DNA of 24,741 bases, taken from the IMG/VR virus record IMGVR_UViG_3300027734_000299, positions 1 through 24,741 of that record, one strand, 5' to 3'. The notes below the pieces were generated by a model. The model was not told where the DNA came from. It did no database searches and saw only the letters and a list, made by a program, of their open reading frames with translations. The position numbers were made by a program, and so were the translations under genes. Positions 9,653 through 24,541 of this stretch are shown one piece after another. The first letter of the stretch is position 1. Each line of letters begins with the position of its first letter. The stretch comes from a virus. Taxonomy: Duplodnaviria > Caudoviricetes.

Positions 9653-9933
9653 TGGTTCAAGCAGCACCACTTAAACATAGCTTTACTTATGATGGAGCAC
9701 AGTTAAATGTAATTCATGCCAATAAGGGGGAAGGTTTACCTAAGCATTCTCACTCTTATAGTCATGCTACTATTTGCCACAACGGCTCTTGCGTTATAAG
9801 AATGGAAGGCAAAGAAAAGATTATTAATAAACACAGTGGTGCTTTTAATTTACCAGCTGGTGAGTGGCATGAGATTGAAGCATTGGAAGACGATACTGTA
9901 TTTGTAAACGTATTCTCAGAGGGTAAGTACTAA
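9652..9933 (+). CDS. Cupin domain protein
   Basis: GEGLPKHSHSYSHATICHNGS and LPAGEWHEIEALEDDTVF cupin motifs 1 and 2. Confidence 0.8.
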   Translation: MVQAAPLKHSFTYDGAQLNVIHANKGEGLPKHSHSYSHATICHNGSCVIRMEGKEKIINKHSGAFNLPAGEWHEIEALEDDTVFVNVFSEGKY

Positions 9934-10298
9934 TGGATCCAATAACAATCCTATCAGCTTTTGCTCCAGTAGTAATGGACTTAGGTAAGTCCCTTATTAA
10001 CAAGTTTGTAGCTCCAGATCAATTTAAACCTGCAACTATCGAGCAGTATGCTCAGATGAAGAACATAGACTTAGAGTTCTTTAAGGTTATGAATGATGCT
10101 GGGGCAGGTAATTCTTCATACCTTTGGGTAGAAGCCATCGTTAGATTAATGAGGCCTCTAATAGGCCTTCTTGTGCTTTCTACATGGGTATATATGCATG
10201 TAACTGGTATAGGAACTCCTGAGGTAGATAACTTTGCTAGTGCTGTAGGTTTCTACTTATTTGGTGAGAGAAGCTTATTTTATATTAAAAAGAAATGA
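9933..10298 (+). CDS. Putative holin (GTA-type 3TM holin-like)
   Basis: N-terminal amphipathic helix, W...RP followed by a TM segment, C-terminal GFYLFGERS and basic tail. Confidence 0.6.
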   Translation: MDPITILSAFAPVVMDLGKSLINKFVAPDQFKPATIEQYAQMKNIDLEFFKVMNDAGAGNSSYLWVEAIVRLMRPLIGLLVLSTWVYMHVTGIGTPEVDNFASAVGFYLFGERSLFYIKKK

Positions 10299-10633
10299 AT
10301 CTTATAACAGTTGAGTCGTGCAAGGCAGTTTACAGAATGTTACGTGAACTCCCACCCTTCAACAAGTATGAGTTACCTAGACCTTCAGAGATAGAATTTT
10401 TAGTAGTAGATGATCCTGCAATGTATGGGCAGTATCAACCTGAACCTCATTGTATTACAATTAGTTCAGCTAAGATGAGTCAACTACAGACCCTTGAGAA
10501 AACAATGGCACATGAAATGGTGCATCTTATTTTATACCTTCAGGGTAAAAGATATGAACTACATAACAAAAACTTCTATAACTTAACATATCAAATAGCC
10601 GCTATCTATGGCTGGGAACCTAAGGATTTATAA
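10295..10633 (+). CDS. SprT-like zinc metallopeptidase
   Basis: TMAHEMVHL (HExxH) plus downstream HNKNF third-ligand motif. Confidence 0.75.
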   Translation: MNLITVESCKAVYRMLRELPPFNKYELPRPSEIEFLVVDDPAMYGQYQPEPHCITISSAKMSQLQTLEKTMAHEMVHLILYLQGKRYELHNKNFYNLTYQIAAIYGWEPKDL

Positions 10634-10812
10634 TGGAACATTTACAAGAGTCAACTAAACACATAATAGACACAGCATCAATAGCTACTGCAGTAGGAAC
10701 CATGATGCAAGTATTGCCAGCAATTGCTGCTTTATTTACAATTATTTGGACTTTAATTCGTATTTACGAAACTAAGACAGTACAGAAACTATTAGGTAAA
10801 CATAAAGGATAA
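10633..10812 (+). CDS. 59-aa holin-like membrane protein (not in ORF track)
   Basis: TAATG coupling, AAGGA SD. MEHLQESTKHIIDTASIATAVGTMMQVLPAIAALFTIIWTLIRIYETKTVQKLLGKHKG has a hydrophobic core and basic C-terminus. Confidence 0.7.
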   Translation: MEHLQESTKHIIDTASIATAVGTMMQVLPAIAALFTIIWTLIRIYETKTVQKLLGKHKG

Positions 10813-13883: not shown

Positions 13884-14573
13884 ATGATTAACTTATTTAA
13901 CTGGGTAACTCTTTTAGTAGAATCATTTACCTTTTATGGTGGTGGTAAAGGTGGTGGTGGTAGTACACAACAATCTACTTCACAAGCTGTAGACTTTTTT
14001 GGTGTAGACAAACGACAAAAGTATGAAGATCTTCTTTACAAATATGTATCAGGAGACTCTGATACTTTAGCTAATGTTAAAAATCAACCTGGTTTTCAAT
14101 TTGGTTTAGATTTAGCAAATGAAGCACAAGATCGTAGTTTTGCAGCTACTGGTGTAGGTCCCTCAGGTTATGAAAATATTGCTAGAAGTAATTTAAATCA
14201 AGGTTATGCTCAAAATTATATCAATGGTATGATTGGTAATTTAACAGCTCCTTCTGGTGCTGGTATTAGCTTAGGTCAAAACTCAACAATGACAAGTAGT
14301 TCACAAGGTCAAAGTCCATTATGGAACGTAGCAGGTACTGTTGCAGGTGCTATGCCTTGGGGTAAAATATTCTCTGATAAAAATCTTAAAACTAATATTA
14401 AACATATTCAAACTATTAAAGGTATTAAAATTTATAGCTTTAATTATATATGGTCTCATGTTAAATCTATTGGTGTCCTTGCACAAGATCTTCTTAAGAT
14501 GCCTGAATATAAACATACGGTAAGTTTAACTAGTCTTGGTTACACTGTTGACTATTCTAAATTACCTATCTAA
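13884..14573 (+). CDS. DNA ejection protein (P22 gp7-like) with C-terminal peptidase S74 autocleaving chaperone
   Basis: Leader then GGGKGGGG; PGFQF motif; SDKNLKTNI...IYSFNY...GVLAQDL...GYTVDYSKL S74 signature from 14373. Confidence 0.75.
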   Translation: MINLFNWVTLLVESFTFYGGGKGGGGSTQQSTSQAVDFFGVDKRQKYEDLLYKYVSGDSDTLANVKNQPGFQFGLDLANEAQDRSFAATGVGPSGYENIARSNLNQGYAQNYINGMIGNLTAPSGAGISLGQNSTMTSSSQGQSPLWNVAGTVAGAMPWGKIFSDKNLKTNIKHIQTIKGIKIYSFNYIWSHVKSIGVLAQDLLKMPEYKHTVSLTSLGYTVDYSKLPI

Positions 14574-20663: not shown

Positions 20664-21059
20664 ATGGAAATGAAGCTTAAACGATTTGAATTTGGTAAAA
20701 CATTTACTATTGGTAAATTATATATAGATGGTATATATCAATGTTTTGTGTTAGAAGATGTTATAAGACCTAAAGGAGAGAAAGTAGATGGACAAACAGC
20801 TATACCTAGCGGCACTTATTCTGTTATTATTGATCGTTCTACCAGGTTTAATAAAGATATGCCTCACATCCTAGATGTGCCTAACTTTACTGGTGTTAGA
20901 ATTCATTCAGGTAACTCTTCTAAAAATACAGAAGGGTGTTTATTAGTAGGTACTACTTGGTCAAGTGGTGATTTTATTGGTAACTCTAAGTTAGCTTATG
21001 ATGCTTTATTTAAAAAGCTAGTAGCTACTAATGAAAAGATTACAATTACAATAGAATAA
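20664..21059 (+). CDS. DUF5675-family putative endolysin (His/Cys L,D-transpeptidase-like motif)
   Basis: TIGKLYIDG..CFVLED, TAIPSGTY, GVRIHSGN...TEGCLLVG. Confidence 0.75.
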   Translation: MEMKLKRFEFGKTFTIGKLYIDGIYQCFVLEDVIRPKGEKVDGQTAIPSGTYSVIIDRSTRFNKDMPHILDVPNFTGVRIHSGNSSKNTEGCLLVGTTWSSGDFIGNSKLAYDALFKKLVATNEKITITIE

Positions 21060-21088
21060 AAAAGGGGCCGAAGCCCCTAATATTATTT
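21055..21088 (-). terminator. Intrinsic terminator between convergent operons (possibly bidirectional)
   Basis: Minus strand reads AGGGGC-TTCG-GCCCCT-TTTTATT: cUUCGg tetraloop plus U tract. Confidence 0.9.
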
Positions 21089-21245: not shown

Positions 21246-21383
21246 TTAAAAATTAACTACAACTCTAACTAAAAATAAATCAATCACTAGGTAAATATCT
21301 TCATTCTTAGGATCTACATCTTTACCGCTTACAAGTTCTATTCCAAAAGTACAACCTTGTATTAAATGAAATGTAGCATCCAT
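21246..21383 (-). CDS. 45-aa hypothetical protein (not in ORF track)
   Basis: TAATG coupling with the nrdJ stop, AGGAG SD; MDATFHLIQGCTFGIELVSGKDVDPKNEDIYLVIDLFLVRVVVNF. Confidence 0.65.
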   Translation of the reverse strand: MDATFHLIQGCTFGIELVSGKDVDPKNEDIYLVIDLFLVRVVVNF

Positions 21384-23269
21384 TATTGCACTCCTACAAT
21401 CTCACAAGCACCCGCAGTACAACTAAGCTCTTGGGTGCCTGTGGTTGTATCTTCTTCCTCTTTTAAGTTACCCCAATCAATCAATGGGAAACTTGCTACA
21501 AAGGCATCATACTCTTCCTTTGTTATTTCTTGATAAGGTGCTTGTTTATACACGTGATCGGAGTGCGGCAGAAGCGATACTCCTGATACATCACTGAAAT
21601 TATTGTATATCCAATCGCCTATCGTCAAGAACTCGTTATCTTTATAGTATACAGTAATAGATGGATTATGTTCTGTCCAGTTCTTTTGATATACACTATA
21701 AAGTTTTAATTGTTCAATTGCATTTGTTTCATTTCTAGTAACACCAGACTCCGTTCCTTTTTGAGGGAAACTAAATATAGTAATGTCACTAGGTTTAGTT
21801 ACATCAGGTTCATTAGGAACACCTTGTGTTTTAAAGAATAACGTTAACGGATCTTTGTTATCCATACGTACAGTCCTAATATAATATTGACTATATGCAG
21901 GATGAATCCCACTAGAACAACCCACCAACTGACTGACTGTACCACTTGGCTTAACAGTAGTGATAGCAGCAGACACAGGAATACCGAGTCGTTCAGCCCA
22001 CTCTTTATTGATCTTAATCGCATGTTCTCTTAGTTCTGTTAACCATTTAACTGTCTCCTCAGTAGGTTTACTAAGTACAGGATGGTCCATAATACCCGTC
22101 ATGCTTACACCAAGTAAACGTTCTTCTTCTTGATTACGTTTCCAATCACTTCTTAAGTATCTAAAGTTTGTAAGGGTGGATTGAAATGTCCCGATAATTG
22201 TTGCGACCCTAACTTTTTCTTTAAGGTCAGCAAGGGTATCGTTCTCTCTGATGACAACTTCACTGAGATTACAAAGCCCTTTAGATCGCAGGATAATTTC
22301 TCCGCAAGGGTTTGTACCGTACTCAAAGCCATCAACATCTCGTCTTCCGTTAGAGCTTGCTTTTTTTGTAGCTGCAACTCTATTAAATAATCCTCTTTCT
22401 CCACTCTTTGATTCATATAATGTTGTCCATTCCTTTAAGAAAATACCTACATCAGGTTTCTCAGTATAGGCTACAGAGTTATTGGCAAGTGCACGTTGCA
22501 CATCAGATTCCCACCAGGCTCCGTTCTTTGCGTTTCGCATCCTATCGTCGGTGAGGTTTGACAAGCTGATAAGAGCTGACCTACGCACACCGCCAACAAT
22601 AACAATATCAGCAACTTTACATACGATGTCATGGCATTCTAAGCTGTTAAGCTTTCTCCCCGCTGCTTTCTTAAAAGTATGAACCGTAAATTGGAACAGG
22701 TCCTCGAGAGGCTTAGGGCCAGATGCTCGGCCTCCAAAAGTTTTAAGCCTAGCTCCTGCAGGTCTGATTCCTGAAGTGTCCCACTTTGGCACTCGTCCTG
22801 AATAGAGTAAGCTAATGAGTTCGCGGTACGCACTAGCCCAGCCAATTCTTGAATCTTTGACTCTAATTGTTGTATCAGTTTCATGGAACTCCTCTGCAAT
22901 AGTAGGTAGGTTATTAGTAAACTGACGTTCTACACTAAAGCCTACGCCAGTACCACACATTAAAACATACATTACTTCATCAAATGCTTTAGGGGAATCA
23001 ATAGCAATGAAGCTACAATTGTAACCTGCTATTTCATCACGTTCTAATGCAGCACCCGCTGACATTAAACATCTCATACTAGGCATTACATTAAGATCAT
23101 GTATTGCTTTATTTACTTCTTGATCTGGAAAAGTATCTGGAAAACGATTCTTAAAAAAGCTAGTGTATCTGTTTACAGTTTCTTCCCATGTTTCTCTACG
23201 GCTTTCATCAGGCATCCATCTTGCATAACGGCTTGCGTGAATAAAACGTTGATAGTCTGTTAATTGCAT
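21383..23269 (-). CDS. nrdJ: Class II adenosylcobalamin-dependent ribonucleotide reductase (monomeric RTPR-like)
   Basis: RETWEETVNR, PSMR, YNC, GTGVGFS, GGVRRSA, GTNPCGEI, CNLSE, TTVKPSGTVSQL, C-terminal CTAGAC redox pair; no small-subunit gene nearby. Confidence 0.93.
   Translation of the reverse strand: MQLTDYQRFIHASRYARWMPDESRRETWEETVNRYTSFFKNRFPDTFPDQEVNKAIHDLNVMPSMRCLMSAGAALERDEIAGYNCSFIAIDSPKAFDEVMYVLMCGTGVGFSVERQFTNNLPTIAEEFHETDTTIRVKDSRIGWASAYRELISLLYSGRVPKWDTSGIRPAGARLKTFGGRASGPKPLEDLFQFTVHTFKKAAGRKLNSLECHDIVCKVADIVIVGGVRRSALISLSNLTDDRMRNAKNGAWWESDVQRALANNSVAYTEKPDVGIFLKEWTTLYESKSGERGLFNRVAATKKASSNGRRDVDGFEYGTNPCGEIILRSKGLCNLSEVVIRENDTLADLKEKVRVATIIGTFQSTLTNFRYLRSDWKRNQEEERLLGVSMTGIMDHPVLSKPTEETVKWLTELREHAIKINKEWAERLGIPVSAAITTVKPSGTVSQLVGCSSGIHPAYSQYYIRTVRMDNKDPLTLFFKTQGVPNEPDVTKPSDITIFSFPQKGTESGVTRNETNAIEQLKLYSVYQKNWTEHNPSITVYYKDNEFLTIGDWIYNNFSDVSGVSLLPHSDHVYKQAPYQEITKEEYDAFVASFPLIDWGNLKEEEDTTTGTQELSCTAGACEIVGVQ
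21844..22023 (-). CDS. Candidate nested +1-frame ORF D in nrdJ, 59-aa two-TM protein
   Basis: MRLRSIKSGLNDSVFLCLLLSLLLSQVVQSVSWWVVLVGFILHIVNIILGLYVWITKIR; weak SD (AAGAG). Confidence 0.3.
   Translation of the reverse strand: MRLRSIKSGLNDSVFLCLLLSLLLSQVVQSVSWWVVLVGFILHIVNIILGLYVWITKIR
22153..22416 (-). CDS. Candidate nested +1-frame ORF C in nrdJ, 87 aa
   Basis: Track ORF on the same strand as nrdJ, in a stretch of atypical nrdJ codons. Confidence 0.3.
   Translation of the reverse strand: MNQRVEKEDYLIELQLQKKQALTEDEMLMALSTVQTLAEKLSCDLKGFVISVKLSSERTIPLLTLKKKLGSQQLSGHFNPPLQTLDT
22471..22632 (-). CDS. Candidate nested +1-frame ORF B in nrdJ, 53-aa lipoprotein
   Basis: MTSYVKLLILLLLAVCVGQLLSA-CQTSPTIGCETQRTEPGGNLMCNVHLPITL with lipobox LSAC; ATG is 6 nt after the stop of ORF A. 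Confidence 0.45.
   Translation of the reverse strand: MTSYVKLLILLLLAVCVGQLLSACQTSPTIGCETQRTEPGGNLMCNVHLPITL
22639..22884 (-). CDS. Candidate nested +1-frame ORF A in nrdJ, 81-aa coiled-coil protein
   Basis: GAGGAG-TTCC-ATG start (same 4-nt spacing as the exonuclease gene SD); MKLIQQLESKIQELAGLV... Confidence 0.45.
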   Translation of the reverse strand: MKLIQQLESKIQELAGLVRTANSLAYSIQDECQSGTLQESDLQELGLKLLEAEHLALSLSRTCSNLRFILLRKQRGESLTA

Positions 23270-23706: not shown

Positions 23707-23798
23707 GACTTTTTAGAGGGGTTATGATGATAGTAGTTACTACGTTTTTTATCTATGTAGCAAGCCATTGATAGGAATATAATTATTAATACAATCAT
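23679..23798 (-). CDS. Possible 39-aa membrane-anchored peptide (not in ORF track)
   Basis: ATGA overlap with the exonuclease stop; MIVLIIIFLSMACYIDKKRSNYYHHNPSKKSCKSQKGMI. Confidence 0.3.
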   Translation of the reverse strand: MIVLIIIFLSMACYIDKKRSNYYHHNPSKKSCKSQKGMI

Positions 23799-24541
23799 AC
23801 GTTAACTAATTTCTGTGATCCTTTTGGTTTGAGATTTGTACCATCTCTAAACCAATTACCACATGTTCTACATTGATAACGTTGGTATCTGCTAGTTGTA
23901 GTAATATTAAATCCACGTTTCTGTACGTTTTTAGATTGACAAGTAGGACAGCAATCAGTCGTACCATTAATTACATTGTTGTTAAGGTGATTTTTAATCC
24001 AAGGTTTAAATCGTTCATATACTTTTTCAAGAAGAATAACATCATTCTTGTTGTATGCTTCCATAATCTTCCATGCTTTAGGAATACCAGCCATACACTG
24101 TACCCATAACTCATGACCACTGTGTTCAGTCTTTTTACCTAATCCTAGTTGCTGTGCAACATAATCAAGCTTGTTAGATACAAATCTAAAGCGACTTTTA
24201 GCAACAGTAAGCAAATCAATTTCTTTAAATGGGGCAGGTGGGAACATGCCATGTAATAAGAATTCTTTATTGAGTGATGGGATATCAAATCGTTTACCGT
24301 TGTAATGAATGACGGCATCAGCCTCATCTAGTAATTTATGAATGCCTTCAAGCATTTTCTTATCACCAGATTTCTTAACAGAATCAAACATCATTTTTTT
24401 ATCACCCAACCATTTGGCTGCATAACACATAACATATGAAGATTCTTGTAATTGATTGATACCAATATTCTGATCCCATATTCCCCATACGTGTGCCACG
24501 TTGGGTGCCATTTCAATGTCTAATAGAAGTATCTTACTCAT
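23795..24541 (-). CDS. RNase H-like DEDD 3'-5' exonuclease with C-terminal zinc ribbon
   Basis: LLDIE (ExoI), HYNGKRFD (ExoII), YNKNDV (ExoIII), CPTC...CRTCG; AAGGAG SD. Confidence 0.85.
   Translation of the reverse strand: MSKILLLDIEMAPNVAHVWGIWDQNIGINQLQESSYVMCYAAKWLGDKKMMFDSVKKSGDKKMLEGIHKLLDEADAVIHYNGKRFDIPSLNKEFLLHGMFPPAPFKEIDLLTVAKSRFRFVSNKLDYVAQQLGLGKKTEHSGHELWVQCMAGIPKAWKIMEAYNKNDVILLEKVYERFKPWIKNHLNNNVINGTTDCCPTCQSKNVQKRGFNITTTSRYQRYQCRTCGNWFRDGTNLKPKGSQKLVNV

Follow-up and report, generated by a model that had tools for sequence, protein, structure and literature searches.

Nested genes are a known kind of gene in phages. Gene E of phiX174 within D, and genes 19.2 and 19.3 of T7, which stand two in series within the terminase gene 19, are out-of-frame genes in essential genes. 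In parts of PMC8785237, embedded genes are called rare in Caudoviricetes, with lambda Rz1 in Rz as the main example. According to passages of bioRxiv 10.64898/2026.10.22.760973, GndA is the product of an out-of-frame open reading frame (ORF) in E. coli gnd that overlaps functional residues, and is a small membrane-associated protein. T5 Llp and Cor are small phage lipoproteins that block an outer-membrane receptor (passages of PMC9586334). Here we describe four ORFs, A, B, C and D, in the +1 frame of nrdJ, the ribonucleotide reductase (RNR) gene of the Caudoviricetes record IMGVR_UViG_3300027734_000299 (24.7 kb, completeness estimate 55%; the whole stretch of 24,741 nt that was analysed is called the window). 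Comparison of sequences suggests that these frames were overprinted in nrdJ, are kept free of stops and are likely translated into separate small accessory proteins. A, C and D are almost certainly kept open by selection, and their protein products are very probably the reason.

The locus is like lambda Rz1 in Rz in that a same-strand, out-of-frame gene would lie wholly inside another gene, and B is also a predicted small lipoprotein. It is unlike Rz1 in that three to four genes would stand in series, in a metabolic enzyme gene and across its active site, that here a gene is not inside its functional partner, and that no inner-membrane spanin (i-spanin) is among the ORFs. As with GndA, internal ORFs lie in the gene of a conserved metabolic enzyme and overlap its functional residues; GndA, however, is single and cellular, is translated and relocalises Gnd, whereas the ORFs described here are several, longer (53-87 aa) and known from sequence alone. 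B has a size similar to Llp and Cor and likewise a lipobox, but no significant homology to them (best E 0.034, in one relative's B). Llp and Cor are ordinary stand-alone genes. From the T7 and phiX174 cases the locus differs in its mother gene. In the open-access literature searched, no paper describing nested genes in phage nrdJ was found (subscription papers and supplements lay outside the search). None is mentioned in the passages of the cobavirus paper PMC6775973 on RNR, spanin, holin and proteomics, and none of nine annotated phage records lists a gene inside nrdJ.

Four +1 frames nested in nrdJ

The first-pass annotation had placed four ATG-started ORFs in series in the +1 frame of nrdJ, covering about 850 of 1040 nt. 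All four were found where it had put them (Table 1), each wholly within nrdJ and in a different frame, and together they occupy 852 of 1041 nt. The GAGGAG-TTCC-ATG that it had read at the start of A is present, and the + strand operon indeed holds a single nested same-strand ORF of at least 60 aa, at 14341-14523. The shift in codon usage that it had described was seen in part: when the 348 nrdJ codons inside the region were compared with the 280 outside, CGA (6 vs 0), CTC (6 vs 0), GGG (4 vs 0) and ATC (8 vs 0) were enriched, but GCG (3 vs 2) and AGC (5 vs 4) were not.

Table 1. Positions in the window of nrdJ, of its nested +1 ORFs and of sites within them
Feature	Positions	Strand	Description
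nrdJ	21383..23269	-	monomeric B12-dependent (class II) ribonucleotide reductase, 628 aa; mother gene
ORF A	22639..22884	-	81 aa, +1 over NrdJ codons 129-210; predicted acidic antiparallel helical hairpin
ORF A Shine-Dalgarno-like site GAGGAG	22889..22894	-	precedes the A start
ORF B	22471..22632	-	53 aa, begins 6 nt after the A stop; predicted lipoprotein, lineage-restricted
ORF B lipobox L-S-A-C (residues 21-24)	22561..22572	-	rare codons over NrdJ L233-I234-S235-L236-S237
ORF C	22153..22416	-	87 aa, +1 over NrdJ codons 285-372 including the catalytic loop; best-supported candidate nested gene
NrdJ active-site motif N320-P-C322-G-E324	22298..22312	-	aligns with the GTNPCGEI motif of 1L1L; overlapped by ORF C
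ORF D	21844..22023	-	59 aa (relatives: mostly 56-102 aa); hydrophobic; covers NrdJ codons 416-475, KPSGT among them

The region holds far fewer +1 stops than expected. NrdJ codons 129-476 contain 10, against 28.7±3.6 when codons were redrawn from the usage of the 31 other genes of the window (10 or fewer in 0 of 5000 redraws). Synonymous shuffling within the same region gave 15.9±2.1 stops (P=0.0056), and the total +1 ORF length was matched in 0 of 5000 such shuffles; the shuffles proposed as a check at the first pass did not reproduce ORFs of this kind.

The mother gene is well identified. NrdJ matches Pfam PF02867, PF21995 and PF17975, phrog_367 (E 4e-185) and PDB 1L1L (E 5e-47). Its residues 133-192 correspond to PF21995, the insertion domain of monomeric class II RNR (ribonucleoside-triphosphate reductase, RTPR), and alignment to 1L1L shows that the catalytic NPCxE loop of RTPR is present. 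N320, P321, C322 and E324 are unchanged in 50 NrdJ sequences, and C85 and C333 are likewise invariant. Matches to NrdJ occur in 1221 phage records, so the mother frame is older and more widespread than the nested ORFs.

Avoidance of +1 stops among relatives

Homologous loci were collected as 79 viral loci with the window's NrdJ, 9 annotated phage records, 3 loci from GTDB and 160 obtained through two distant NrdJ queries. Nine duplicates among the first 80 coding sequences were dropped, as were 19 of 161 later loci that were partial, interrupted or contained N, and the final set held 149 representatives (<93% nucleotide identity). The test windows covered NrdJ codons 129-206 (A), 213-265 (B), 285-371 (C) and 416-470 (D); the ends of the A and D windows were cut by 3-4 codons after the relatives' stops had been seen. 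Clades were taken from a FastTree tree. One locus (L072), which has a deletion in the A window, was left out of the near-saturated-lineage stop test and the Asp+Glu test given below.

In one clade of 37 representatives (support 0.94, protein identity 62-100%), A and C are open throughout, D is open in 34 and B in 20. The three windows A, C and D are jointly open in 34 of these 37 and in 0 of the 112 representatives outside; taken singly, the open windows outside number 8 for A, 1 for B, 15 for C and 62 for D. The ORFs were independently gained and lost across lineages.

We then considered alignment columns in which a synonymous change could make a +1 stop. Stops occurred in 0/8 such columns of A, 4/13 of B, 0/15 of C and 3/10 of D in clade I, against 40/44 elsewhere; in 0/11, 10/13, 0/12 and 0/9 in clade II, against 36/45 elsewhere; and in 0/13, 0/13, 0/13 and 0/10 in clade III, against 23/48 elsewhere. 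In 16 near-saturated lineages, with no more than 16-49% identity at four-fold sites outside the ORFs, the stops observed and expected were 0 and 46.3 in A, 0 and 61.5 in C, 1 and 39.6 in D, and 25 and 65.6 in B, where the expectation was computed on each NrdJ protein's own sequence. Depletion is thus clade-wide in A, C and D, and is found for B in the close subgroup and clade III only. Scattered +1 stops, which the first-pass annotation had taken as a sign against its reading, were found in none of A, C and D across relatives, while out-groups that share the same NrdJ protein motifs do carry +1 stops.

The avoidance depends on the next base. Leu, Ile and Val codons ending in A stand before a purine in 0/304 cases in A, 0/377 in C and 4/281 in D, versus 680/1617 outside, and before a pyrimidine in 90/234, 63/225 and 52/163 cases in A, C and D (the cells of both counts are not independent). 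Plain codon preference is therefore ruled out. The +2 frame shows no depletion in A or D, nor in C for the two closer groups. Antisense ORFs were considered as a cause and rejected, since the antisense frames still have stops in these windows; in the codon-aligned antisense frame, stops are below expectation in C and D. Recent import of the segment was not seen either, because third-position identity is not lower in the region than in the flanks: there is no drop among the five closest of nine relatives, and in the other four the values are similar and near saturation.

Reduced synonymous variation, the other signal anticipated at the first pass, was found for part of the ORFs. Synonymous changes per invariant codon in C are 1.26 vs 3.20 in clade I (p=1e-10) and 2.04 vs 3.24 in clade II (p=2e-5), and B of the close subgroup shows 1.20 vs 1.93 (p=0.0017). 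In A the reduction is mild and limited to clade I (2.30, p=0.011). D overall, and clade III, gave no such reduction.

Starts and predicted products of A and C

Start codons are conserved for C and D and mostly for A. An ATG at codon 282-285 (C) is present in 37/37 of the clade vs 11/112 outside, and where the ATG at codon 285 was lost, one at 282 is found instead. The D start, an ATG at 414-417, is present in 34/37 vs 28/112 and is kept through a His/Asp change in NrdJ. For A, an ATG at codon 117 or 129 is present in 31/37 vs 17/112; the open frame of A in the window has a further upstream TTG at 22899. Pairing with the anti-Shine-Dalgarno (anti-SD) sequence at the codon 129 ATG averages -7.8 kcal/mol over 19 sequences, the strongest of 42 recurrent +1 ATG columns, and the mean is -5.8 at codons 285 and 416.

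The products of A and C would be acidic. Asp+Glu make up 11-13% of A and C in all three clades, compared with 4% in the 112 out-group translations (z about 1.7-2.6 vs about 0). The fraction of xGA among Gly/Arg codons is 0.59-0.66 vs 0.25-0.27; because the acidic enrichment needs xGA codons in NrdJ, the CGA/GGA shift is explained without import. Neither product has a hydrophobic segment (maximum hydropathy over 19 residues 0.6 in A and 0.9 in C). AlphaFold2 folded A into helices at residues 3-34 and 39-79 with a predicted local distance difference test score (pLDDT) of 90.8 and a predicted template modelling score (pTM) of 0.68, out-group translations not being among the folds; the model of C, two helices, is of low confidence (pLDDT 66.8, pTM 0.31). 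Clade II disfavours radical +1 changes in C (p about 0.005 for transitions and for transversions).

A profile of A gave 109 aligned hits, of which 107 fit the +1 frame of invariant NrdJ residues. No stand-alone homologue was thus found in this search, which indicates that A arose by overprinting; with the C profile, no more than 3 proteins of similar length were found. Against PHROGs, neither the single ORFs nor the full alignments of C, A and D (33, 22 and 29 sequences) gave a match better than E 0.001, and the four ORFs gave no Pfam match at E 0.1. Foldseek gave none within E<=0.001 when C was compared with the viral library and A with the PDB and viral libraries, and the ESM Atlas gave no usable match for C and a best score of 0.86 for A. 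RNA structure over C was tried as an explanation and rejected: the region folds slightly better than shuffles (z -1.97), but the covariation term is -0.32 and a two-sided change is seen in 4/61 pairs.

ORF D and ORF B

D is hydrophobic over most of its length, and its hydropathy is moderately above that of the out-group (1.2-1.6 vs 1.1-1.2). Translated in +1, the B and D windows of the out-group are also hydrophobic (mean hydropathy 1.1-1.7), so B and D owe most of their hydrophobicity to the NrdJ codons. In many other lineages D is open without A or C. In a marine group of 48 representatives its window holds stop-making codons at 17/372 vs 623/1944 outside the windows, and it is open in 5/8 cultured phages.

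B is probably real in this genome but lineage-restricted. In the window's own subgroup (23 distinct genes), stops fall in 0/13 stop-able columns of B vs 37/44 outside. The lipobox is present in 9/9 close representatives, as in outer-membrane spanins (o-spanins), and its codons are unchanged in the 23 sequences save for a single TTG/CTG difference, silent in +1. All 9 representatives of clade III have B open, one of them with the lipobox pattern, and all 12 of clade II have it broken. Its start ATG (35/37 in the clade, 51/112 outside) is frequent outside too, and therefore uninformative.

Spanins and the operons around nrdJ

In the window, the + strand operon carries virion and lysis-candidate genes, and nrdJ is the last gene of a replication operon on the - strand. 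A bidirectional terminator-like hairpin (21063-21078) lies between the converging operons. Two small hydrophobic genes judged holin-like by eye (9933-10298 and 10633-10812, +) have no family match, and a DUF5675 gene (20664-21059, +) takes the endolysin position, where relatives have other endolysin-like genes. Promoter-like sites occur at the level of shuffles (12 vs 14.3).

Neither an i-spanin partner nor a PHROG spanin match was found among A, C and D. A canonical Rz/Rz1-like spanin pair stands just upstream of nrdJ in the replication operon of L027 (2332-2856 and 2585-2755), L028 and G006; none turned up in the subgroup of the window. As known positives escaped the hydropathy screens for i-spanins, the comparison uses tblastn with a positive control; for the queried spanin types, with G006 as the control, four near-complete close relatives (G001-G004) lack the L027-type pair. 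One further relative (G005) lacks both B and the pair, and L027 has both. Because Rz-like spanins occur in relatives, a Gram-negative host is suggested. A scan of GTDB gave two phage-like contigs in metagenome-assembled genomes and one weak partial match, and no host.

DNA near-identical to the window is present in freshwater and lake runs. Contigs assembled from an RNA library cover most of nrdJ at >=99%, and as assembled contigs they do not show transcription, frame, strand or level.

Open +1 frames in other lineages and genes

In clade III (L044, L062-L077, L091) the +1 frame is tiled stop-to-start, like a second operon, with tiles at codons about 110-207, 208-266/278, 279-378, 379-413, 414-479 and 480-542. 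A Rhizobium/Sinorhizobium phage group (L081, L084, L173, L185) has an open +1 stretch from codon 70-110 to 233, of up to 163 codons, and the D window is open in 3/4 of this group; the two GenBank records among them annotate neither. In 22 marine representatives (L101-L159), and also in L083, L172 and L225, a different +1 ORF occupies the C window at NrdJ-equivalent codons 297-393. In the 22 it has a GTG start with a strong Shine-Dalgarno site (about -9 kcal/mol in most), and 17 of them carry a terminal CxxC-x(9-12)-CxxC, the other five being without all four cysteines. The motif is written over nearly invariant NrdJ residues and is also found in the cultured Roseobacter phage CRP-403.

Other genes show open +1 frames as well. 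In the window's exonuclease gene (23795-24541, -), +1 stops are scarce, at 8 in 249 codons, and ORFs of 60 aa (24327-24145) and 53 aa (23967-23806) are nested in that frame; over 39 homologous stretches, the fraction of A-ending codons is 0.31 before purines vs 0.49 before pyrimidines. Nested +1 ATG ORFs at matching positions in four or five genomes were seen in G002-G006 (L256, L260, L262-L263, L266, L270), in a putative helicase (codons about 145-158 and 305) and in the exonuclease part of the polymerase (about 64-80 and 193-197).

Discussion

The preferred interpretation is that the nrdJ mRNA would be read in two frames. Internal Shine-Dalgarno sites would give A and C their starts, ribosomes would re-initiate at B, 6 nt beyond the A stop, and D would begin directly behind an upstream +1 stop. 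For A and C, cytoplasmic helical proteins that would bind host proteins are predicted, and for D a small inner-membrane protein. B is predicted to be an outer-membrane lipoprotein, for which a receptor blocker of the T5 Llp/Cor kind appears the likeliest role, although this assignment is itself tentative. The products would act in the replication phase and not as a single lysis module. What was directly observed is stop avoidance, conserved starts (C, D and mostly A), synonymous constraint (C, and B in the close subgroup) and acidic enrichment (A and C). The case for coding is best for C and A, good for D and lineage-restricted for B.

Several observations weigh against this interpretation. 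A shows no synonymous constraint in clades II and III, nor does any of the four ORFs in clade III, and for D such constraint is seen only at the four-fold sites of clade II (p=0.009). The test for radical +1 substitutions found no avoidance in A, B or D in any group, nor in C in the four groups other than clade II. The A start varies in position (codon 129, codon 117, or none found nearby), its Shine-Dalgarno site is weak in clade II and anti-SD pairing is weak at codon 117; in this genome B and D have almost no pairing (+0.2 and -1.7 kcal/mol). D is broken in four close sequences, L013, L014, L076 and L020. The weak match of B to Cor (phrog_1119, E 0.034) is confined to the copy of L007, the copies of the window, L020 and L027 giving none, and together with the likewise weak match to an Rz-like family (E 0.03) it may reflect the signal peptide alone. 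Families, folds and atlases gave no match that names a function for the nested ORFs.

One alternative is that C or D partners NrdJ itself and would tune it or anchor it at the membrane, on the model of GndA and Gnd in E. coli (passages of bioRxiv 10.64898/2026.10.22.760973). A shared mRNA guarantees co-expression, and a D window open in so many out-group lineages (62/112) would fit such a role. However, the starts and C-termini of C-window ORFs differ between lineages, and long +1 ORFs occur also at matching positions in the relatives' helicase and polymerase genes, a pattern that speaks for the +1 frame being used generally and not for a partner specific to RNR. On our analysis the partner role seems unlikely.

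The first-pass annotation had suggested that the frames may encode an envelope module for lysis or superinfection exclusion; in the form considered here, all four ORFs would make up a single envelope or lysis module in which B takes the place of the o-spanin. The lipobox of B and the lack of the Rz/Rz1-like pair upstream of nrdJ in G001-G004 are in its favour. Against it, no ORF combines an N-terminal membrane anchor with a long helical domain behind it, and B is broken throughout clade II while A, C and D persist. G005 is without B and without the pair, L027 has both, and nrdJ belongs to the replication operon, whose strand is not that of the lysis candidates. Since the ORFs were gained and lost independently, separate accessory genes are favoured, and a four-part module is very unlikely. 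This part of the first-pass proposal has become weaker overall, B being limited to the subgroup and one distant clade and D being lost in some close relatives. Its second coding layer is strongly supported: of the three outcomes it had set against itself, namely scattered stops with saturated synonymous sites, shuffles that yield such ORFs often, and recent import, none occurred.

Selection may instead act on the passage of ribosomes in +1, as a re-initiation relay, as regulation of nrdJ or for a frameshifted isoform, and not on products. Such selection would account for stop avoidance with little amino-acid constraint in A and D and for the tiling of most of the gene in clade III. But acidic enrichment, amphipathic helices, the confident fold of A, the invariant lipobox and the all-or-none four-cysteine motif of a marine clade are signals at the level of the product, and the conserved ATG codons argue against entry by frameshift; we give it little credence. 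Chance, amino-acid constraint of NrdJ, codon bias, RNA structure or import from a GC-richer donor would explain why B and D are hydrophobic and why some of the SD-like sequences exist, both of which follow from NrdJ residues, and the slightly better folding of the C region, but such an origin retains almost no probability and is refuted for A, C and D by the column, next-base and near-saturated-lineage tests, given expectations drawn from each protein's own sequence, stops in out-groups with the same motifs, no covarying structure over C and third-position identity that is not lower in the region among close relatives.

About 45% of a core enzyme gene (852/1887 nt), active site included, appears doubly coding. 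In annotation practice, embedded genes of tailed phages count as rare (passages of PMC8785237) and are dropped. RNR is used as a phage phylogenetic marker, so analyses of synonymous sites and of the ratio of nonsynonymous to synonymous substitution (dN/dS) would be distorted in these clades. Part of the proposal is directly testable, because cultured phages have open windows (those of A and D in Sinorhizobium phage phiM6, those of C and D in Lentibacter phage ICBM2, and windows in Roseobacter phages CRP-5 and CRP-403). Somewhat speculatively, the +1 frame of phage class II nrdJ may be a reusable nursery of genes in which lineages have written different proteins, among them a helical hairpin, a lipoprotein, a zinc-ribbon protein and a membrane protein, over the same catalytic-site codons. 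On this no less doubtful view, clade III may have gone as far as a complete second operon, its five or six translationally coupled genes tiling the frame, and at least one product would act on the reductase. What the lineages appear to record is replicated, lineage-specific birth and loss of genes by overprinting at fixed positions.

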